Source: Escherichia coli (GTDB taxonomy: Bacteria; Pseudomonadota; Gammaproteobacteria; Enterobacterales; Enterobacteriaceae). Taken from it: 64,000 nucleotides of DNA. A program made the translations under genes and the position numbers. Position 1 is the stretch's first letter; every line of letters starts with the position of its first letter. Location of the stretch: the NCBI RefSeq assembly GCF_002854065.1, contig NZ_CP024147.1. One strand, given 5' to 3'. The notes under the pieces are model-generated. The model saw only the letters and a program-made list of their open reading frames with translations, was not told where the DNA came from and made no database searches. Below are positions 410 through 62,260 of the stretch, in pieces.

Positions 410-1039
410 CTATTTAACCGTCCAGGCGCGGGAATATTGACGGTCGGCAAACAACTCTTGCAGGCCGTTAATTTGCTTCAGGCGCAGCACTTCGTCGCTG
501 TCCATTCCCAGCTCTTTGCCAATTTTATTATCGTCCCATCCCAACTGGCTAAGTTCACGGACGATTTCCGACATGGCGGTGATTTGATGGCGTCCACGAG
601 CGCGATTATGACGAATAGTCGCGGCGATGCGTTGATTACGCGTACCTTCCAGACAGGTCACCGGCAAATAACCTTTTAAGCGTAATTGTAATGATGATGA
701 GCCTTTACCAATTTCATGGCGGTGAAAACCATCCACGATTTCCAGAGCATTTTTATCCGTATGCGTGACCACAATGGGTTGGGTAAAACCATCTATTTCA
801 ATGGATTTTTGCAGCAGTTTCTTCTCTGGCGGTGCCACATTATTGGGATTGTAATCATTTGGCACGAGCTGGCTATTTTTCACCCACAGAACGCAATCCA
901 CTGGCTCTTCACGAAAGGGGCTAACCTGATGGATCGCCATGCGGATTTCATTAATCGCTTTGATGCGATCATCTTCCGGCAAGCTGGCGAGAAATTGCGT
1001 TAAATCCTGCGTTAATCGTTGTTGCATAGTATCCCCCAT
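410..1039 (-). CDS. ybdM: ParB/Srx-like nuclease-domain protein (IbrB-like)
   Basis: 209-aa ORF containing the motif EIVDGFHRHEIGK (DGQHR/ParB-Srx-like); its start overlaps the ybdN stop by 28 nt. Confidence 0.9.
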   Translation of the reverse strand: MGDTMQQRLTQDLTQFLASLPEDDRIKAINEIRMAIHQVSPFREEPVDCVLWVKNSQLVPNDYNPNNVAPPEKKLLQKSIEIDGFTQPIVVTHTDKNALEIVDGFHRHEIGKGSSSLQLRLKGYLPVTCLEGTRNQRIAATIRHNRARGRHQITAMSEIVRELSQLGWDDNKIGKELGMDSDEVLRLKQINGLQELFADRQYSRAWTVK

Positions 1040-2232
1040 TCCTGACGTTTTCCTTTTATCCGTTCGTTATAACGCTGATAGTTCTTCGCTTTCGTAGGAC
1101 TAAATGATAATGCCCGACACCAGTAATCGTTATTGAGTAAAACTTTGCATATCCGCCGCCAGGAGGGGATATCTTTCGCGCCAATGTCCCCTTGCTGGGT
1201 TTGTGGAACCTCGATGCCTTTTTTCTGATACCAGTGCAAATAAATGGCGATTTTATTGCGGTAATGCTCAGCTGTTTTTTCCGGCATGCTATTGAGCAGC
1301 AATAATGCATATTCTTGCCAGTCTAAATGTTCTGGCTTGAGGATTTTCCGATGCCCATAGAAATGATTGTCATGTCCGGCGTAAATGCCGCCACTTTTTA
1401 CCCCGCTGACTCGTGCGCACATAGCAGCCCAGCGATCCGGTTCGATAACGTGATAGAGCCATAATCCTTGTCGTTGCTCCGGGCCAAAAGGTTCGCAAAT
1501 TCGCATATGACGCAGAGGAACGCCTGCCTGATACATCAGGTTATACAGTGGGTTGCAGAGACTTTGATGATTTGCATACCAGGTCCAGATATCAGCCACT
1601 TTCCAGTCGTAAATGGGATAAATGTACCAGCTATGACCGCCTGGTGCGGCCGTAGTCCAGGGTTTATCGTCGGCAAAACGTTGTTTATTTAAACTGGCGA
1701 TGGCGACAAAACGGTTGTAGGACTCATCCGCACGGATGCCGATCATCATCGCCGCCGGACGTTTTTGTGAAAACCATTCGGCAAACTCACGTACAAATTG
1801 TTCGAAGGTCATGCCTGGCTGGTAAAAGGAGAAAAAGTCAGGATCGGTTATCGCATCTTGCGGGGGCTGACGCACCCATTCGACATCAGGTTCCCAGCAC
1901 TGCCATTCGGGTTGGTATTGTGAAAGGGAATTTTGCGTCGTAAGCGGGAGCGCAACCCAGTAAAACTCTTCGATGACATCGGTGTACAACTCGTGCAGGG
2001 ACTGAACATAATTAATGGTGCAAGAGAATTGCGCCTCCCAGTCGATAAACAAAACGCAGATTTTTTTGCCCATTTGTCGGGCAAGTTCGGCTGTCAGATG
2101 CAGCATTAAACCAGAGTCTTTGCCGCCAGAAAATGAGACACAAACGCGGGGTAGGGTGTTGAGTGTCCAGGTAATACGCTCTCGTGCAGCTTCCAGAATA
2201 TTGAGCGGAAGAGGAATTTTATAAATAGACAT
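1012..2232 (-). CDS. ybdN: PAPS-reductase-like PP-loop ATP pyrophosphatase family protein (IbrA-like)
   Basis: 406-aa ORF with the PP-loop motif SFSGGKDS near the N-terminus; length matches K-12 YbdN. Confidence 0.9.
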   Translation of the reverse strand: MSIYKIPLPLNILEAARERITWTLNTLPRVCVSFSGGKDSGLMLHLTAELARQMGKKICVLFIDWEAQFSCTINYVQSLHELYTDVIEEFYWVALPLTTQNSLSQYQPEWQCWEPDVEWVRQPPQDAITDPDFFSFYQPGMTFEQFVREFAEWFSQKRPAAMMIGIRADESYNRFVAIASLNKQRFADDKPWTTAAPGGHSWYIYPIYDWKVADIWTWYANHQSLCNPLYNLMYQAGVPLRHMRICEPFGPEQRQGLWLYHVIEPDRWAAMCARVSGVKSGGIYAGHDNHFYGHRKILKPEHLDWQEYALLLLNSMPEKTAEHYRNKIAIYLHWYQKKGIEVPQTQQGDIGAKDIPSWRRICKVLLNNDYWCRALSFSPTKAKNYQRYNERIKGKRQEWGILCNND

Positions 2233-2710
2233 CTGAAGACGCTCTCTGAACGTTACAGGGTGATCAGTGAGATAAGACTGTTAATTATAAAGTAAACACT
2301 GAAAAGCAGAGTGTTTTATTTTTCATTCGCGCTGTGAATAAATAGGTGAAAGTTATAGTAGCTGTCTGAGGTTATATATCAAAAACACTCATTTAGACGG
2401 TCAATGAATCGTGAGAACACCAGATTGTTTAAAGAAGATTTATTATAGGAAATGTAAAGCTTTATTGAAGGTAACGGATGTTCTAGTTTTATCTCTTTTA
2501 AATTAAGAAAGTCACGGTGGGAGTTATAAAGTTCATAGGGGACTATTCCCAGTAAATCTGTAACTGCAATGCTATTAATGATTGTCAGCAAAGAGGAACC
2601 ACGAAATGAAATTTTGCGATTCATAAATCTCTCGTCTATTTCCATTTGAATATCATCAACCCCTGCTGATTTAGATATTAATTGGGTGAACTCTTCTGCC
2701 ATAATTTGTT

Positions 2711-2719
2711 CATAAGTGC
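2711..2719. repeat. IS1 target-site duplication, left copy (CATAAGTGC)
   Basis: The same 9-mer occurs immediately outside both IS1 ends. Confidence 0.9.
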
Positions 2720-2774
2720 GGTGATGCTGCCAACTTACTGATTTAGTGTATGATGGTGTTTTTGAGGTGCTCCA

Positions 2775-3050
2775 GTGGCTTCTGTTTCTATCAGCTGTCC
2801 CTCCTGTTCAGCTACTGACGGGGTGGTGCGTAACGGCAAAAGCACTGCCGGACATCAGCGCTATCTCTGCTCTCACTGCCGTAAAACATGGCAACTGCAG
2901 TTCACTTACACCGCTTCTCAACCCGGTACGCACCAGAAAATCATTGATATGGCCATGAATGGCGTTGGATGCCGGGCAACCGCCCGCATTATGGGCGTTG
3001 GCCTCAACACGATTTTCCGCCATTTAAAAAACTCAGGCCGCAGTCGGTAA
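2775..3050 (+). CDS. insA: IS1 InsA (transposition inhibitor / N-terminal part of the transposase)
   Basis: 91-aa ORF beginning [30 protein letters not shown], recognised as IS1 InsA. Confidence 0.95.
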
Positions 3051-3472
3051 CCTCGCGCATACAGCCGGGCAGTGACGTCATCGTCTGCGCGGAAATGGAC
3101 GAACAGTGGGGATACGTCGGGGCTAAATCGCGCCAGCGCTGGCTGTTTTACGCGTATGACAGGCTCCGGAAGACGGTTGTTGCGCACGTATTCGGTGAAC
3201 GCACTATGGCGACGCTGGGGCGTCTTATGAGCCTGCTGTCACCCTTTGACGTGGTGATATGGATGACGGATGGCTGGCCGCTGTATGAATCCCGCCTGAA
3301 GGGAAAGCTGCACGTAATCAGCAAGCGATATACGCAGCGAATTGAGCGGCATAACCTGAATCTGAGGCAGCACCTGGCACGGCTGGGACGGAAGTCGCTG
3401 TCGTTCTCAAAATCGGTGGAGCTGCATGACAAAGTCATCGGGCATTATCTGAACATAAAACACTATCAATAA
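2969..3472 (+). CDS. insB: IS1 InsB reading frame (expressed as an InsAB' fusion by -1 frameshift)
   Basis: 167-aa ORF in the -1 frame relative to insA, recognised as IS1 InsB. Confidence 0.9.
3026..3032 (+). promoter_or_regulatory. IS1 A6C slippery site for programmed -1 ribosomal frameshifting
   Basis: AAAAAAC heptamer within the insA/insB overlap. Confidence 0.7.
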
Positions 3473-3487
3473 GTTGGAGTCATTACC

Positions 3488-3496
3488 CATAAGTGC
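3488..3496. repeat. IS1 target-site duplication, right copy (CATAAGTGC)
   Basis: The same 9-mer occurs immediately outside both IS1 ends. Confidence 0.9.
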
Positions 3497-4268
3497 TATT
3501 GTCAGTAATTCGTGGATGCCTATTACTACAAATTAGAGTATTGCGAATCGTATGCAATGGCATGCAAATGACGGAACGGCTGATCACTGGCATTTGGGTG
3601 ATCACCAGATCGGCTTTGCGGTGAACCAACAGTTCTTCAGCATTCTCTGCTGACATGAGGATATCATGGCACTCAATCTCGACAGAGGAATCTTGTCGTA
3701 GGCAGCGGATCAGCATACTATTATTAGAGCAAGAAATGAGCTGAGGGCCGTGAATAATAAAGTTTTTCTTTAGTTCGGACTTATTGACTATATTAATTGT
3801 TTGTTCAAGGCCTCTGAGATTTTTCTCAAGATGGTGATGCAGATTTAACCCTGTTGTCGTCGGCGCGATACCTTTTCCTGAGCGAATGAATAAAGGGTCA
3901 TTAAATTGCGCACGTAAGCGTTGTAACGACTGGCTCACGGCTGATGGGGTGATATATAGTGATTCAGCAGCTTTGCTAATGCTTAAATGCTGGTAAATAC
4001 ACTCAAATATGACAAGAAGATTTAAGTCGAACTTTTTCAAGTCGTAGAGATTGGTCATACACTACTCCGGTTATATTTTTCTTCCATGATATATTCACTT
4101 AATCAATGTTTTTTTTGCGTATATATTTTTATTGGTTATGTTTTTTTGCTTAACTCAGGATTAAGTTTTTCTAAAATAGCACAGCCACTTAGGGCAGAGC
4201 GAGCAATTCATGCTTTTTTAGGATGGTTGAAAAGCAGGGATATAGTTCAACCATCCATGAATTACCTT

Positions 4269-5015
4269 TTATTTATTTCCCATAATGATATTAAGCGTTT
4301 TCTGATCGGGCAACCCCACGGCCTGTTGCAGCGTATTTTCCTTACTCATGTAATAGATAGCCGGAGTGACATTTGCCCCCAGATCGTCCATCAGTTTCTC
4401 ATTGTCACTTAACACTTTCATTTGCTCTGTACTTACGTTTGCAGGCACGTTTAGCTTAAGCTTGCCACCAGAGGCTTCATATTGTTGCCAGGTTTTTGCG
4501 GGATCTTTGGAGGCAAGAATTGCCGCGGCTGTCGCCGGACTTTCTGGTTTGATAACCCCAACCAACAATGTTCTCAACTGTACTTTGCCAGAATCTACCC
4601 ACGGGCGCGCCTGCTGCCAGAACTGTTTACAATATGGGCAGAACGGATCGGCGAAGACGTAGACAATGACCGGCGCATCTTTTTTACCGTCGAGGAGCCA
4701 GTGGGATTGTTCCATCCGTTGCCACATTTCGCGTCCGGCTGGTGCGTAAATTTCTTTTTCGATAAGTGTGTTACTCAGGTTTTCACCTTTCTCGTTGTAC
4801 ATGTAACCAGAGATAGCGTGCTTACCATCTGGAGTCAGGTAGATGGTGACGCCCATATCCTGATACTTTCCGAGATAACCTTTCATTCCTCCGGGGGCAT
4901 CGAACGCTTTGATGATCGTAATACCCTGTTTTTCAATCGCTTTTACTGGAGCAGGAAGTTCCTCTGCGAAGGCGATTGCAGGAAGCAGAGCCAGTAAAAG
5001 TATCTTTTTTAACAT
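4269..5015 (-). CDS. dsbG: Periplasmic disulfide isomerase/chaperone DsbG
   Basis: ORF 4269..5075; start placed at the internal ATG at 5015 ([17 protein letters not shown] signal peptide, preceded by AAGGA), giving 248 aa; thioredoxin-like CPYC motif present. Confidence 0.9.
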
Positions 5016-5279
5016 TAATTTGTCCTTTTCAGTCAGTGCAAAAGTCGAGTAAAAGGCATAACCTATCATTGTCATAGGTAAGAGCTTAGATCAGGTGATT
5101 GCCCTTTGTTTATGAGGGTGTTGTAATCCATGTCGTTGTTGCATTTGTAAGGGCAACACCTCAGCCTGCAGGCAGGCGCTGAAGATACCAAAGGGTAGTT
5201 CAGATTACACGGTCACCTGGAAAGGGGGCCATTTTACTTTTTATCGCCGCTGGCGGTGCAAAGTTCACAAAGTTGTCTT

Positions 5280-10293: not shown

Positions 10294-10341
10294 TTTTACT
10301 CCATGTCGTCGGTACTGCGAGTGTCGCAGATAAACATACCC

Positions 10342-10377
10342 AAAAGAAAACCCTCACCGTCAGGCGGCGAGGGTTTA
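10342..10377 (-). terminator. Rho-independent terminator downstream of rna
   Basis: Hairpin AACCCTC...GAGGGTT followed by a T-rich tract on the minus strand. Confidence 0.5.
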
Positions 10378-10522
10378 ACTCACATGATGATACTGACTGT
10401 TGCTCACTCTTTGAAGTGATTTGCGTCACATTCAGGGAATTCCTCAATGCAGCGCATTATGTATAAATCTTAATCGCCTTGGTTTATGGAAGACGAATTA
10501 GCGTGTTTTGTAAATCAGAGGA

Positions 10523-22880: not shown

Positions 22881-23441
22881 ATGAACGTGAGTAAATATGT
22901 CGCTATCTTTTCCTTTGTTTTTATTCAGTTAATCAGCGTTGGTAAAGCTTTTGCTAACGCAGATGAGTGGATGACAACGTTTAGAGAAAATATTGCACAA
23001 ACCTGGCAACAGCCTGAACATTATGATTTATATATTCCTGCCATCACCTGGCATGCACGTTTCGCTTACGACAAAGAAAAAACCGATCGCTATAACGAGC
23101 GACCGTGGGGTGGCGGTTTTGGCCTGTCGCGTTGGGATGAAAAAGGAAACTGGCATGGCCTGTATGCCATGGCATTTAAGGACTCGTGGAACAAATGGGA
23201 ACCGATTGCCGGATACGGATGGGAAAGTACCTGGCGACCGCTGGCGGATGAAAATTTTCATTTAGGTCTGGGATTCACCGCTGGCGTAACGGCACGTGAT
23301 AACTGGAATTACATCCCTCTCCCGGTTCTACTGCCATTGGCCTCCGTGGGTTATGGTCCAGTGACTTTTCAGATGACCTATATTCCGGGTACCTACAACA
23401 ATGGCAATGTGTACTTTGCCTGGATGCGCTTTCAGTTTTGA
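22881..23441 (+). CDS. pagP: Lipid A palmitoyltransferase (outer-membrane beta-barrel)
   Basis: ORF 22857..23441; start set at [14 protein letters not shown] for 186 aa. Confidence 0.93.
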
Positions 23442-23615
23442 GACAAATGAAGTTTTAGTAAATTCTTTAAAATCAATGAGTAAAATAATTAACATCAAAA
23501 ATAACGCGACTTTTATCACTTTTTAGTAAAGTTGCACTGGACAAAGCGTACCACAATTGGTGTACTGGTAACCGACACAGCATTTGTGTCTATTTTTCAT
23601 GTAAAGGTAATTTTG

Positions 23616-23825
23616 ATGTCTAAGATTAAAGGTAACGTTAAGTGGTTTAATGAGTCCAAAGGATTCGGTTTCATTACTCCGGAAGACGGCAGCAAAGACG
23701 TGTTCGTACACTTCTCTGCAATCCAGACTAATGGTTTTAAAACTCTTGCTGAAGGTCAGCGCGTAGAGTTCGAAATCACTAACGGTGCCAAAGGCCCTTC
23801 TGCTGCAAACGTAATCGCTCTGTAA
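23616..23825 (+). CDS. cspE: Cold-shock-domain protein CspE
   Basis: 69-aa protein [22 protein letters not shown] with RNP motifs; ATG at 23616 inside the longer track ORF. Confidence 0.95.
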
Positions 23826-23845
23826 GATACGTCAGCAAGAATTCA

Positions 23846-23874
23846 AAACCCGCTTAATCAGCGGGTTTTTTTTG
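23846..23874 (+). terminator. Rho-independent terminator downstream of cspE
   Basis: Hairpin AACCCGC-TTAATCA-GCGGGTT followed by T8. Confidence 0.75.
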
Positions 23875-26749: not shown

Positions 26750-27702
26750 TCAAAATGCATTACGGATAACATCTATTACTCCGTGCAGGATGGGATCACG
26801 CAGGCTGAATTTGTTGTAGTGGATAGAGAAATCTATTTGCTCCTCATTTAAGGACGGAAAAGGCAGTTTTTCCAGCGGCCAGCAACGGCTAAACAGGTTA
26901 TAAAAACGGCTGGGAATAATCGCTAACATGTCACTGTTGGCAACCAGTGCAGCGATTGTCAAAATGTTGTAGCTGGTGAAGCTGATCTGCCGGTCCGGAA
27001 ACATCTCTTGAATTCTCTGCCGCAGACCGCTGAAATTTTGTCCTTCCGGTAACAGGAGTACATGTGCAGCGTTGTCGATAGTCTCTCTGTCATCTTCTAA
27101 AGAGAGTAGTGGATTTCCCTCGCGGCAAATTAACACCATATTGTCGGTGAACAGAACATGATGTTGCACCGTACGATTGGTGCAAAACATGTTATCGATG
27201 ATGAGATCGGTTTGAAACTGACTGAGTTGGTTTTCCGCGTCGCTGATGGGAGGGTTGCGCAGTAAAAGCTGCGGATAGTGAGTTTTAATCGCCCGATAAA
27301 TGACAGGAAGGACCAGGGCTCCGACCGAGGGGGTGGTCGCGATAGTTATCGTTCGTTGCTTATCATAGCTTCCTTCGATATCCAGCGCGCCAAGAATGGA
27401 TTCAAGGCCCTGACTGATATACTCATGTAGATGCATCGCAAATGCGGTAGGAGTGACACCCTGGCCTTTGCGAATAAACAATGGGTCAGGGATATAACGC
27501 GCAGTTTCTGTATAGACTGACTGATTGCCGAGGGGGTCAGATTAAGCACTTTCGCTGCATTAACGATCCCTTTATGTACATATACAGCTTCAAAAATAGT
27601 CAGAAGGTTAAGATCAATATTTCGTAAGGTTGTAAATATTTGTGGTTTACCTTCTGACGACTTTCTGCTTAAACAGGGTTCGATTTGATTATTACTATCC
27701 AC
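26750..27702 (-). pseudogene. ybeF: LysR-family transcriptional regulator split by an apparent 1-bp frameshift
   Basis: N-terminal HTH ORF (27346..27702) and C-terminal substrate-binding-domain ORF (26750..27481) are adjacent in different frames and together reconstitute one LysR-type protein; the frame changes near 27489-27496. Confidence 0.7.
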
Positions 27703-27961
27703 GCACTTACTCCAATTTTATTCATGGAAAAATAATATTTAAAAAAATTACAATAATCTTATGTCTAATTGGAACGGAACGCTTTTGCTCACCATAATCA
27801 ACTATTTCAATAAGTTAATCAATGGGGTGAGTTACGGAGCAAGGCGTAGCATCGCATTTCTGCAAGTGATAAAGAAAATATACAAACGCGAAGGAGATGT
27901 AAAGCATTAGCAGGTGTTATGAGTAATGACCCAGTGTAAATTGGGCCATTGAGGTATGAAA

Positions 27962-52996: not shown

Positions 52997-53008
52997 AAAT
53001 CTACTCCA

Positions 53009-53043
53009 GAAAAAAGAGGGTAGCAGCGTTAACTGCTACCCTC
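53009..53043 (-). terminator. Intrinsic terminator/attenuator between gltI and gltJ (3' end of SroC)
   Basis: 11-bp perfect stem, 6-nt loop and a 6-U tail on the minus strand. Confidence 0.65.
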
Positions 53044-53165
53044 GAAGATTGTTACCCAGCGTATTGCGGTTTTCAGGCCCGATGGGGAACGACCATCAGG
53101 CGTATAGTCTGTCCGTGCTACGTAACAATTGAGAGGGCTGGAATTTCCGCCCCTGGTTCTTGTAA
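53009..53165 (-). ncRNA. sroC: SroC small RNA region (gltI-gltJ intercistronic, ending at an intrinsic terminator)
   Basis: Perfect 11-bp hairpin GAGGGTAGCAG-CGTTAA-CTGCTACCCTC followed by a U-run on the minus strand; the position matches the known SroC locus. The 5' end is not determinable from sequence. Confidence 0.5.
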
Positions 53166-54074
53166 TTAGTTCAGTGCCTTGTCATTCGGTTCTTTGAACA
53201 GTGCTTTCATTTCGTCTGACAGTTCGAAATTCATGTTCAGGTTTTTCGGCGGAATTGGATTTTTGAACCATTTATCAAACCATTTTTCCGCTTCACCGGA
53301 GGTCTGCACCTGAGCGATGGTGTCATCCATCAGCTTTTTGAACTGCGGATCGTCTTTACGCAACATGCAACCGTAGGCTTCCTGAGACTGCGGCTTGCCG
53401 ACGATATCCCAGTTGTCTGGTTTCTTCGCTTTCGCACGTTCACCGGCCAGCAGGGCATCATCCATCATAAAGGCAACGGCACGACCGCTTTCCAGGGTGC
53501 GGAAAGAGTCACCGTGATCTTTGGCGCTGATGATGCGCATATTCATTTTTTGCTCTTCATTCAGTTTGTTGAGCAAAACTTCAGAGGTAGTGCCGGAAGT
53601 GACGACTACGGCTTTGCCTTTCAGGTCGGCAAAATCTTTGATATCGCCGCCCTTTTTGGTCAACAGGCGCGTACCGACCACGAAAATAGTGTCAGAGAAA
53701 GCCGCCTGTTTTTGGCGTTCGACGTTGTTGGTGGTAGAACCACATTCAAAATCGAAAGTGCCGTTTTGCAGAAGAGGAATACGGTTTTGTGAGGTGATCG
53801 GAATCAGTTTCACCTGCAAGTCCGGTTTGTTGAGTTTCTTTTTCACTGCTTCAACAATGGCGTTGGAGTAATCCTGCGAATAACCCACCACTTTTTGCTG
53901 ATTGTCGTAATAAGAGAAAGGTACTGAAGATTCACGGTGACCGACGACAATCACGCCGTTTTTGGCGATTTTGTCCAGCGTACTGCCCGCTGCCGGGGCG
54001 GCGTCATCTGCCTGTGCCAGTCCTGCGGAAAGCGCAAGGGCCAGGATTGCTGTGGCAGGTTTACGTAATTGCAT
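53166..54074 (-). CDS. gltI: Glutamate/aspartate periplasmic binding protein
   Basis: ORF 53166..54149; start set at the ATG at 54074 (MQLRKPATAILALALSAGLAQA signal peptide) for 302 aa. Confidence 0.93.
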   Translation of the reverse strand: MQLRKPATAILALALSAGLAQADDAAPAAGSTLDKIAKNGVIVVGHRESSVPFSYYDNQQKVVGYSQDYSNAIVEAVKKKLNKPDLQVKLIPITSQNRIPLLQNGTFDFECGSTTNNVERQKQAAFSDTIFVVGTRLLTKKGGDIKDFADLKGKAVVVTSGTTSEVLLNKLNEEQKMNMRIISAKDHGDSFRTLESGRAVAFMMDDALLAGERAKAKKPDNWDIVGKPQSQEAYGCMLRKDDPQFKKLMDDTIAQVQTSGEAEKWFDKWFKNPIPPKNLNMNFELSDEMKALFKEPNDKALN

Positions 54075-61557: not shown

Positions 61558-61632
61558 TGGCTGGGGTACGAGGATTCGAACCTCGGAATGCCGGAATCAG
61601 AATCCGGTGCCTTACCGCTTGGCGATACCCCA
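61558..61632 (-). tRNA. glnX: tRNA-Gln (anticodon CUG)
   Basis: 75-nt reverse complement of the tRNA-Gln sequence, including the CCA end; anticodon loop ATTCTGATT. Confidence 0.95.
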
Positions 61633-61669
61633 ACTGGGTGCACTTACAAGGTAAGCGTCTTGAATAAAT

Positions 61670-61744
61670 TGGCTGGGGTACGAGGATTCGAACCTCGGAA
61701 TGCCGGAATCAGAATCCGGTGCCTTACCGCTTGGCGATACCCCA
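61670..61744 (-). tRNA. glnV: tRNA-Gln (anticodon CUG)
   Basis: Identical copy of the 61558-61632 sequence. Confidence 0.95.
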
Positions 61745-61791
61745 ACAAATTGGTTTTGAATTTGCCGAACATATTCGACACATTCAGAATT

Positions 61792-61868
61792 TGGTGGCTA
61801 CGACGGGATTCGAACCTGTGACCCCATCATTATGAGTGATGTGCTCTAACCAACTGAGCTACGTAGCC
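61792..61868 (-). tRNA. metU: tRNA-Met (elongator, anticodon CAU)
   Basis: 77-nt reverse complement of elongator tRNA-Met, with CCA. Confidence 0.95.
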
Positions 61869-61883
61869 AGATTGTTTCTTCGA

Positions 61884-61958
61884 TGGCTGGGGTACCTGGA
61901 TTCGAACCAGGGAATGCCGGTATCAAAAACCGGTGCCTTACCGCTTGGCGATACCCCA
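61884..61958 (-). tRNA. glnW: tRNA-Gln (anticodon UUG)
   Basis: 75-nt tRNA-Gln with anticodon loop TTTTTGATA. Confidence 0.95.
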
Positions 61959-61992
61959 ATAACCGGGCGGTGAACCGCTTACTCGAAGAAGA

Positions 61993-62067
61993 TGGCTGGG
62001 GTACCTGGATTCGAACCAGGGAATGCCGGTATCAAAAACCGGTGCCTTACCGCTTGGCGATACCCCA
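61993..62067 (-). tRNA. glnU: tRNA-Gln (anticodon UUG)
   Basis: Identical copy of the 61884-61958 sequence. Confidence 0.95.
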
Positions 62068-62090
62068 TCCGTACAACGCTTTCTGGTGAA

Positions 62091-62175
62091 TGGTGCGGGA
62101 GGCGAGACTTGAACTCGCACACCTTGCGGCGCCAGAACCTAAATCTGGTGCGTCTACCAATTTCGCCACTCCCGC
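62091..62175 (-). tRNA. leuW: tRNA-Leu (anticodon UAG)
   Basis: 85-nt type-II tRNA with a long variable arm, with CCA. Confidence 0.93.
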
Positions 62176-62183
62176 AAAAAAGA

Positions 62184-62260
62184 TGGTGGCTACGACGGGA
62201 TTCGAACCTGTGACCCCATCATTATGAGTGATGTGCTCTAACCAACTGAGCTACGTAGCC
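62184..62260 (-). tRNA. metT: tRNA-Met (elongator, anticodon CAU)
   Basis: Identical to the metU copy. Confidence 0.95.

Follow-up and report, generated by a model that had tools for sequence, protein, structure and literature searches.

A simple and apparently recent IS1B insertion splits the regulator gene ybdO/citR of Escherichia coli in a cluster that IS1 has struck repeatedly

What kind of event broke the regulator gene ybdO in this E. coli strain, and what would its loss mean for the neighboring genes ybdN and ybdM? We addressed these questions in a 64-kb window, by which we mean the whole stretch of DNA that was analyzed. Its gene order, the 3' end of ybdL followed by ybdM, ybdN, the split ybdO, dsbG and ahpCF, is the normal one for E. 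coli. The minus strand carries all three genes of interest, ybdO (citR under its current RefSeq name), ybdN and ybdM, consistent with the co-orientation described in the initial annotation of this DNA. The interruption of ybdO comprises the following features:

2711..2719: left target duplication CATAAGTGC, equal to ybdO nt 563-571 (minus strand)
2720..3487, plus strand: complete IS1 of the IS1B type, exactly 768 bp
2720..2742, plus strand: left inverted repeat (IRL), GGTGATGCTGCCAACTTACTGAT, a canonical end
2727-2754: promoter-like CTGCCA-16-TATGAT, overlapping IRL and positioned to drive insA
2775..3050, plus strand: insA, 91 aa, GTG start
2969..3472, plus strand: insB frame, the C-terminal part of the InsAB' transposase
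3026..3032, plus strand: A6C programmed -1 frameshift site, in the context TTTAAAAAAC
3465..3487, minus strand: right inverted repeat (IRR), GGTAATGACTCCAACTTATTGAT, source of the Gly codon and the TAA that close the YbdO fragment
3488..3496: right target duplication CATAAGTGC

The element agrees with the general description of the IS1 family (PMC12428005), and the initial annotation is borne out: the coordinates of a complete 768-bp IS1 with a perfect 9-bp duplication all hold, and the canonical ends, the insA and insB frames and the A6C site were each located. When both strands of the window were scanned, CATAAGTGC was found in two copies, both abutting the IS1. IRL and IRR showed 0 mismatches to the canonical sequences and occurred once each, with 0 occurrences expected in shuffles, and the two arms agreed with each other at 18/23 of the first positions. 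Translation through a -1 shift yields an InsAB' of 232 aa that contains no internal stops and ends at 3472. Compared with annotated copies, the element is identical to the RefSeq-annotated IS1B of strain 100416 (0/768 mismatches), differs at a single position from the IS1B copy of TUM12357, and has 7-9 mismatches to IS1A copies. With its coding and terminal features all intact, it would be expected to be transposition-competent. Its direction of transcription is opposite to that of ybdO, and its IRL end faces the C-terminal fragment of ybdO and ybdN.

The insertion leaves the remainder of the locus arranged as follows:

410..1039, minus strand: ybdM, 209 aa, ParB/IbrB-like; intact, identical to that of strain CUWW06, with a 28-bp overlap with ybdN
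1012..2232, minus strand: ybdN, 406 aa, PAPS-reductase-like/DUF3440, IbrA-like; intact, identical to that of CUWW06
2233..2378, minus strand: ybdO-ybdN intergenic region, untouched by the insertion
2379..2719, minus strand: ybdO/citR 3' fragment, native codons 188-300, in which the only start is an internal ATG at 2702
3483..4058, minus strand: ybdO/citR 5' fragment, an ORF of 191 aa made up of 190 native residues and a Gly, followed by a TAA supplied by IS1
4059..4268, minus strand: dsbG-ybdO intergenic region with the H-NS-repressed ybdO promoter; GC 0.35

Excision in silico of IS1 together with one copy of the repeat brought back a 300-aa YbdO ORF on the minus strand, identical to the citR product of CUWW06 and scoring 458.7 bits against the NCBIfam CitR equivalog NF047710 (cut-off 400). 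Pfam matched HTH_1 to residues 12-70 of this protein and LysR_substrate to residues 135-298. The latter match opens at position 42 of the 209 in the model, which places the start of the domain at about residue 95; the ORF, cut after residue 190, is therefore broken midway through the effector domain. Thus, the disruption of the regulator ORF reported in the initial annotation is confirmed, but it is the LysR substrate-binding domain itself that is split and not, as had been proposed, the boundary between the HTH and effector domains, and the "191 codons" ascribed to the N-terminal part consist of 190 native ones plus a Gly codon that comes, like the TAA, from the IS1 end. In the window allele, HTH_1 and a complete LysR substrate-binding domain do not occur together in one ORF. 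The truncated CitR would lack the C-terminal 110 residues, roughly half of the substrate-binding and oligomerization domain, and because of this domain loss the allele is most likely null or severely crippled, although a 190-residue LysR fragment that keeps the HTH and the linker helix could have some DNA binding left. RefSeq labels the comparable IS1-split ybdO alleles that we retrieved as pseudogenes, and the two ybdO fragments here are best annotated as one pseudogene.

The interrupted gene ybdO has been described as an H-NS-bound, horizontally acquired gene (PMC4720273, PMC9141747), and its GC content is 0.39, compared with 0.48 for ybdN and 0.50 for the window. Its transcription start was mapped 107 nt 5' of the ATG (Higashi 2016, PMC4720273), corresponding to about window position 4165, and the only CitR ChIP-exo peak was reported upstream of citR itself, that is, in the dsbG-ybdO intergenic region (Rodionova 2022, PMC9068703).

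An empty site is available in a close relative. E. coli CUWW06 (NZ_CP182139.1) carries an intact citR of 300 aa with a single CATAAGTGC at the corresponding position, and, once the IS1 and the duplicated 9 bp are set aside, the sequence flanking the site matches the window at all but 1 of 6,019 bp (the mismatch is at window position 4907, in dsbG). Identity is 100% across window positions 4100-29000, and over the first 50 kb of the window the IS1 with its duplication is the sole structural difference, the remaining differences amounting to 8 mismatches and 1 gap in 47 kb. The comparison with a related genome that had been suggested for this locus was thus carried out and produced the single copy of the target, and the perfect 9-bp duplication together with this near-isogenic empty site indicates, as far as the sequences can tell, that the insertion is a recent, simple transposition. 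The same evidence, combined with the full length of the element, upholds the earlier view of a simple transposition event rather than a rearrangement.

The allele itself is rare. With a 400-bp junction query, the ybdO-IS1 junction of the window was absent from 5,426 RefSeq complete E. coli genomes; the one match at 100% identity was made up of two pieces spanning 1,040 bp and was not a one-piece match, and a 100-bp junction query, for which 5 matches were listed, added no resolution because non-adjacent pieces get joined. The exact 191-aa product was found on 2 NCBI contigs only, one a 4.64-Mb chromosome and the other a 58-kb draft contig. This draft contig (GCA_035821435.1) has the same ybdO-IRR junction and ends 75 bp into IS1; a 1-nt difference from the window in 3,646 shows that it is a separate sequence record. 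Together, the source strain and CUWW06 offer a near-isogenic pair of natural origin, one with ybdO::IS1 and one lacking it, usable to test both CitR repression of ybdNM and read-through transcription into ybdNM.

Although this particular allele is rare, insertion of IS1 into ybdO is not. We searched the 5,426 complete E. coli genomes with a chimeric query joining 200 bp of ybdO to 200 bp of the IS1 IRL end and with a second query carrying the opposite IS1 end. IS1 was present in or beside ybdO in the window orientation in 198 genomes and in the opposite orientation in 14 more. At least 11 further independent IS1 events, in both orientations, were mapped in ybdO or its leader among the complete genomes. 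The first seven IS1 matches were all oriented as in the window, and the apparent orientation bias was rejected as an artefact of the chimeric query once the reversed-end query had returned the 14 opposite cases. The alleles, with their target duplications and positions in ybdO, are:

window: CATAAGTGC, nt 563-571, IS1B
042 lineage (042/ST38-type): GTAATTCG, nt 547-554, an IS1 variant different at 69/768 positions; most of the ~200 genomes
EC596: GTAATTCG, nt 547-554, IS1B in the opposite orientation
W21 type: GCCTATTAC, nt 533-541
TUM12357: TGCGAATCG, nt 509-517
2018-05-5CC: GGCATTTG, nt 463-470
1218KP: AGCTTTATT, nt 816-824
GF4: TTTTTTGCG, nt -58 to -52, in the ybdO leader
LR-21-1 and MB51: without duplication, left junctions at nt 509 and 514, IS1-adjacent deletions to ~nt 200
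100416: without duplication, right flank from nt 834, ybdNM replaced between two IS1B copies

The EC596 insertion uses the same 8 bp as that of the 042 lineage, but in reversed orientation, and is therefore an independent event. At least 8 of the IS1 events cluster at ybdO nt 463-571. A cluster of the truncated protein at 90% identity held 230 distinct N-terminal YbdO fragments, with lengths of 159-191 aa among the 15 listed. The stretch around nt 460-571 has the look of a regional hotspot, but a control with the ybdN flank revealed IS1 in or adjoining ybdN in 65 genomes, with the two orientations represented 9 and 56 times; the strains listed from the E. coli B lineage, BL21(DE3), REL606 and C41/C43, are among them. 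A ybdO-specific hotspot was therefore discarded, and given that IS1 recurs in ybdN too, the claim reduces to the ybdO-ybdN cluster being a frequent IS1 target. The reconstructed empty site matched 3,536 genomes, so that ybdO is uninterrupted in most of the matching genomes.

Considering all these observations, we regard it as very probable that a recent, simple IS1B transposition into the AT-rich, H-NS-silenced ybdO/citR turned the gene into a pseudogene, and that this is one case of a recurrent disruption of the cluster. The simplest cause of the recurrence would be that IS1 favors AT-rich DNA and that purifying selection is weak, ybdO-ybdN being, in this scheme, a non-essential, horizontally acquired cluster that is struck repeatedly. 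IS1 reportedly prefers AT-rich targets (Zerbib et al. 1985), and H-NS is reported to be involved in IS1 transposition (Shiga et al. 2001, cited in PMC12428005).

The alternative that survives best, though it appears improbable, is that inactivation of ybdO/citR has been positively selected in some niches, with IS1 as the commonest mutational route and the derepression of CitR targets (ybdNM, citrate lyase, flagella and oxidative-stress genes) as the payoff. The events at nt 463-571 and the large 042-type clade could reflect selection for gene loss and not target preference: many independent IS1 events have accumulated in a 0.9-kb gene, in both orientations and with one 8-bp target used twice, and a single insertion allele is present in roughly 200 complete genomes, including that of strain 042. 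Deletion of ybdO in avian pathogenic E. coli (APEC) reportedly raised both virulence and H2O2 resistance (PMC11681634), and ybdN and flagellar genes rise in a citR deletion (PMC9068703). Conversely, YbdO promotes virulence in K1 strains (PMC9141747), the allele of the window is itself very rare, and the gene stays uninterrupted in most genomes that match the empty site. Furthermore, the neighboring structural gene ybdN is likewise struck by IS1 in the 65 genomes noted above, and ybdN/ybdM are deleted or truncated in some genomes; such damage to ybdN and ybdM themselves is what a decaying cluster would show, and does not suit selection for ybdNM activation. That nt ~460-571 is a true IS1 hotspot and that, in addition, CitR loss is recurrently selected in E. 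coli is likewise doubtful; if it were true, IS1 would act as an evolutionary off-switch of an H-NS-silenced regulator, with derepressed IbrA/IbrB-like ybdNM, oxidative-stress genes or flagella as the payoff.

Decay of the cluster under IS1 insertion is our preferred reading. The ybdO::IS1 allele in the window is a real instance of an already-known type of event with many parallels, and, being one of many independent IS1 insertions at the locus, it has little special significance. Taken alone, it is a minor observation, another IS1 pseudogenization of a dispensable, H-NS-silenced, horizontally acquired regulator gene; taken together, the IS1 events in ybdO and ybdN across E. coli offer a handy case in which to separate IS1 target preference from selection.

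What, then, would become of ybdNM? RefSeq names YbdN a "phosphoadenosine phosphosulfate reductase" with DUF3440 and YbdM an "IbrB-like domain-containing protein". In NCBIfam, YbdN gave sub-threshold matches to PAPS reductase and DndC, and YbdM a weak ParB/Noc-like match. PADLOC returned marginal, partial matches to DndC (E=1.9e-5, 21.8 bits) and BrxP (E=2.9e-4), and, for YbdM, to MTase_II (E=6e-4). Because these PADLOC and NCBIfam matches are only marginal, ybdN and ybdM are not assignable to a known defense system, and we rejected their identification as a known anti-phage system such as Dnd or BREX.

The region between ybdO and ybdN is a gap of 146 bp. A scan of positions 2100-4350, which include this gap and the IS1, found 0 terminator-like hairpins, and an intrinsic terminator parting ybdO from ybdN or lying within IS1 was accordingly dismissed. 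Two promoter-like features lie in the gap:

2382..2355, minus strand: promoter-like TTGATA-16-TACTAT, 3' of IS1 in the direction of transcription
2289..2284, minus strand: perfect TATAAT

An FNR box 5' of ybdN, judged by eye, matched at only ~6/10 positions. The literature disagrees on whether ybdO and ybdNM share a transcript: ybdO "seems to be a single cistron" (Higashi 2016, PMC4720273), while another study, which also speaks of "citR-ybdNM" autoregulation, gives ybdNM an operon of its own and cites an FNR promoter predicted for it in EcoCyc (Rodionova 2022, PMC9068703). In the latter work, citR deletion changed ybdN expression by a log2 fold change of +5.5, as seen in one RNA-seq comparison of a K-12 BW25113 deletion mutant, and CitR was named a ybdNM repressor on this evidence; flagellar genes were raised as well. 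The searched text of PMC9068703 contained no description of how the mutant was made, and should a resistance cassette be present in it, the rise in ybdN could stem from transcription running out of that cassette.

Two opposing effects on ybdNM might be anticipated. On the one hand, translation of ybdO would stop at the edge of IS1 and be followed by ~1.1 kb of untranslated RNA (the 768 bp of IS1 and the 3' ybdO remnant); given this long untranslated stretch, Rho would be expected to end transcripts from the ybdO promoter before they reach ybdN, by analogy with classical IS1 polarity. On the other hand, ybdN and ybdM are intact and would keep their own intergenic promoter region, and the published repression of ybdNM by CitR makes derepression a main candidate outcome. 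The two effects, derepression and a polar block of read-through, seem about equally plausible. As to the net result, that ybdNM expression stays low, through the block of read-through combined with H-NS silencing, has a probability that we would put just short of even; that expression rises, with the CitR repressor lost and a separate ybdN promoter active, is a substantial possibility that we would place somewhat below the even mark; and that a new IS1-derived promoter drives ybdNM seems very unlikely. The initial annotation had emphasized that IS1 lies between the ybdO promoter and ybdNM. This is physically true, but its importance is uncertain, as ybdNM may have a promoter of its own: given the promoter-like sites in the gap and the single-cistron report, disconnection would matter only where most ybdNM mRNA arises by read-through.

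The second possibility raised there, re-wiring of ybdNM, lacks sequence support. Such re-wiring would have an outward or hybrid IS1 promoter, or lost H-NS silencing, turn on ybdNM independently of the ybdO promoter, in the manner of bgl activation by IS1 or IS5. IS1 ends are known to form fusion promoters by donating a -35 element (Prentki 1986, cited in PMC9330008); TTGGCA, a candidate -35, is present in the IRL end that faces ybdN, and the locus is H-NS-bound (PMC4720273, PMC9141747). However, the -10 candidates in the flank, AACAAA, ACAAAT and CAAATT, each match at only 3/6 positions, no promoter on the minus strand emerged at the junction from a consensus scan, and the junction is ~490 bp upstream of the ybdN ATG. 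A search for a hybrid promoter at the IRL junction with a relaxed threshold yielded only 8/12 matches, with a -10 element again at 3/6, and this candidate was rejected. Moreover, no specific geometry is favored, as IS1 insertions in ybdO are found in either orientation and at a wide range of positions. We therefore give re-wiring no better than a slim chance, and return to a disrupted ybdO/citR next to intact ybdN and ybdM.

The weakest alternative is an assembly artefact, in which IS1 was wrongly put into ybdO during repeat resolution: IS1 is multicopy, each E. coli genome having a median of ~10 places that match it, and assemblies classically go wrong at repeats, but misassembly makes no target-site duplications, whereas here a perfect 9-bp duplication exactly bounds a full-length IS1, and the separate draft assembly GCA_035821435.1 shares the ybdO-IRR junction, so that an artefact is very unlikely.

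Comparison with known systems places the insertion in a familiar setting. The IS1B of E. coli K-12 is alike in its length, its inverted repeats, its A6C-joined insA and insB, its 232-aa InsAB' and its 8-9 bp duplication; the element in the window shows no differences of its own, and only the insertion site is particular to the strain. The H-NS-silenced bgl operon, activated by IS1 or IS5, offers a partial parallel, in that there, too, the IS inserts into AT-rich, H-NS-bound DNA beside silent genes (PMC9678765, PMC8836124), but the IS in the window lies within a coding sequence, ~490 bp from the next gene, with no sign of activation. The closest counterparts are the other natural ybdO/citR::IS1 alleles, which involve the same gene and the same IS family, four of them within 62 bp of the site in the window. 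Those with intact junctions are, like the insertion described here, simple insertions with 8-9 bp duplications and with ybdN and ybdM in place, but their targets are 16-108 bp away or more, and the isoform and orientation sometimes differ. Finally, the ybdN::IS1 alleles of the E. coli B lineage (BL21(DE3), REL606) carry IS1 in the same three-gene cluster, where the structural gene ybdN, and not the regulator, was struck, which again points to a dispensable cluster that is a frequent target of IS1.

The ybdO gene contains a target that IS1 has used more than once. The 8-bp sequence GTAATTCG, at nt 547-554 of the ybdO coding sequence, is occupied by IS1 in both strain EC596 and the E. coli 042 lineage, with the two elements lying in opposite orientations (coordinates here and below are internal to each fetched locus unless assigned to the window):

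EC596 locus, 1717-2484: IS1B at ybdO nt 547-554, orientation opposite to that of the 042-lineage IS1
E. coli 042 locus, 3217-3984: divergent IS1 at ybdO nt 547-554, orientation opposite to that of the EC596 IS1B

The 042-lineage element differs from the IS1 copy of the window at 69 of 768 positions. The EC596 and 042-lineage insertions at GTAATTCG are two independent events at a single site.

Two further strains carry IS1 in ybdO without a target duplication:

LR-21-1 locus, 1755-2522: IS1 in ybdO, no target duplication
MB51 locus, 1750-2517: IS1 in ybdO, no target duplication

In both, the element bridges ybdO nt ~509/514 to nt ~200-203; with the duplication missing as well, both are therefore IS1-adjacent deletions that have removed ~300 bp from this gene. 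In LR-21-1, the junction on the left falls at the IS1 target position of strain TUM12357, in which, in addition to the ybdO::IS1B insertion, ybdN is truncated by IS26 (locus positions 1-2713); the present neighbors of the truncated gene, bioA, ybhB and pinE, indicate a larger IS26-associated rearrangement. In strain 100416 (locus positions 607-3768), ybdN/ybdM are replaced by a 1,452-bp gene annotated as encoding a hypothetical protein, located between two IS1B copies in inverted orientation, and the 3' end of citR (the current RefSeq name of ybdO) is altered. The IS1 adjoining citR lacks a target duplication, which marks the event as an IS1-mediated replacement or deletion.

The window itself is nearly identical to the empty-site strain CUWW06: across 6,019 bp compared around the insertion, the sole nucleotide difference is at window position 4907, in dsbG. 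The ybdO paralogue ybeF, whose NCBIfam model ranks second-best for YbdO (164 bits), adjoins lipA, beyond the cit/dpiAB/dcuC cluster as seen from ybdO, and its window copy appears intact. It is listed here with the Rfam matches of the window, which are routine, with none unusual:

~26750-27703, minus strand: ybeF, LysR-type paralogue of ybdO (position mapped from the CUWW06 annotation)
5149-5242, plus strand: STnc70, upstream of ahpC (44 bits, barely over the gathering score)
10339-10447, minus strand: rnk leader
23431-23873, plus strand: cspA-type thermoregulator at cspE
53008-53170, minus strand: sroC
61561-62260, minus strand: seven clustered tRNA genes

In other genomes IS1 is also found at ybdN; the window's ybdN, at 1012-2232, is the counterpart of the gene affected in the E. 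coli B lineage. The B lineage strains listed (BL21(DE3), REL606, C41/C43 and derivatives) carry IS1A in or adjoining this gene; IS1 near ybdN lies in the orientation of the B lineage copy in 56 genomes and in the opposite one in 9.
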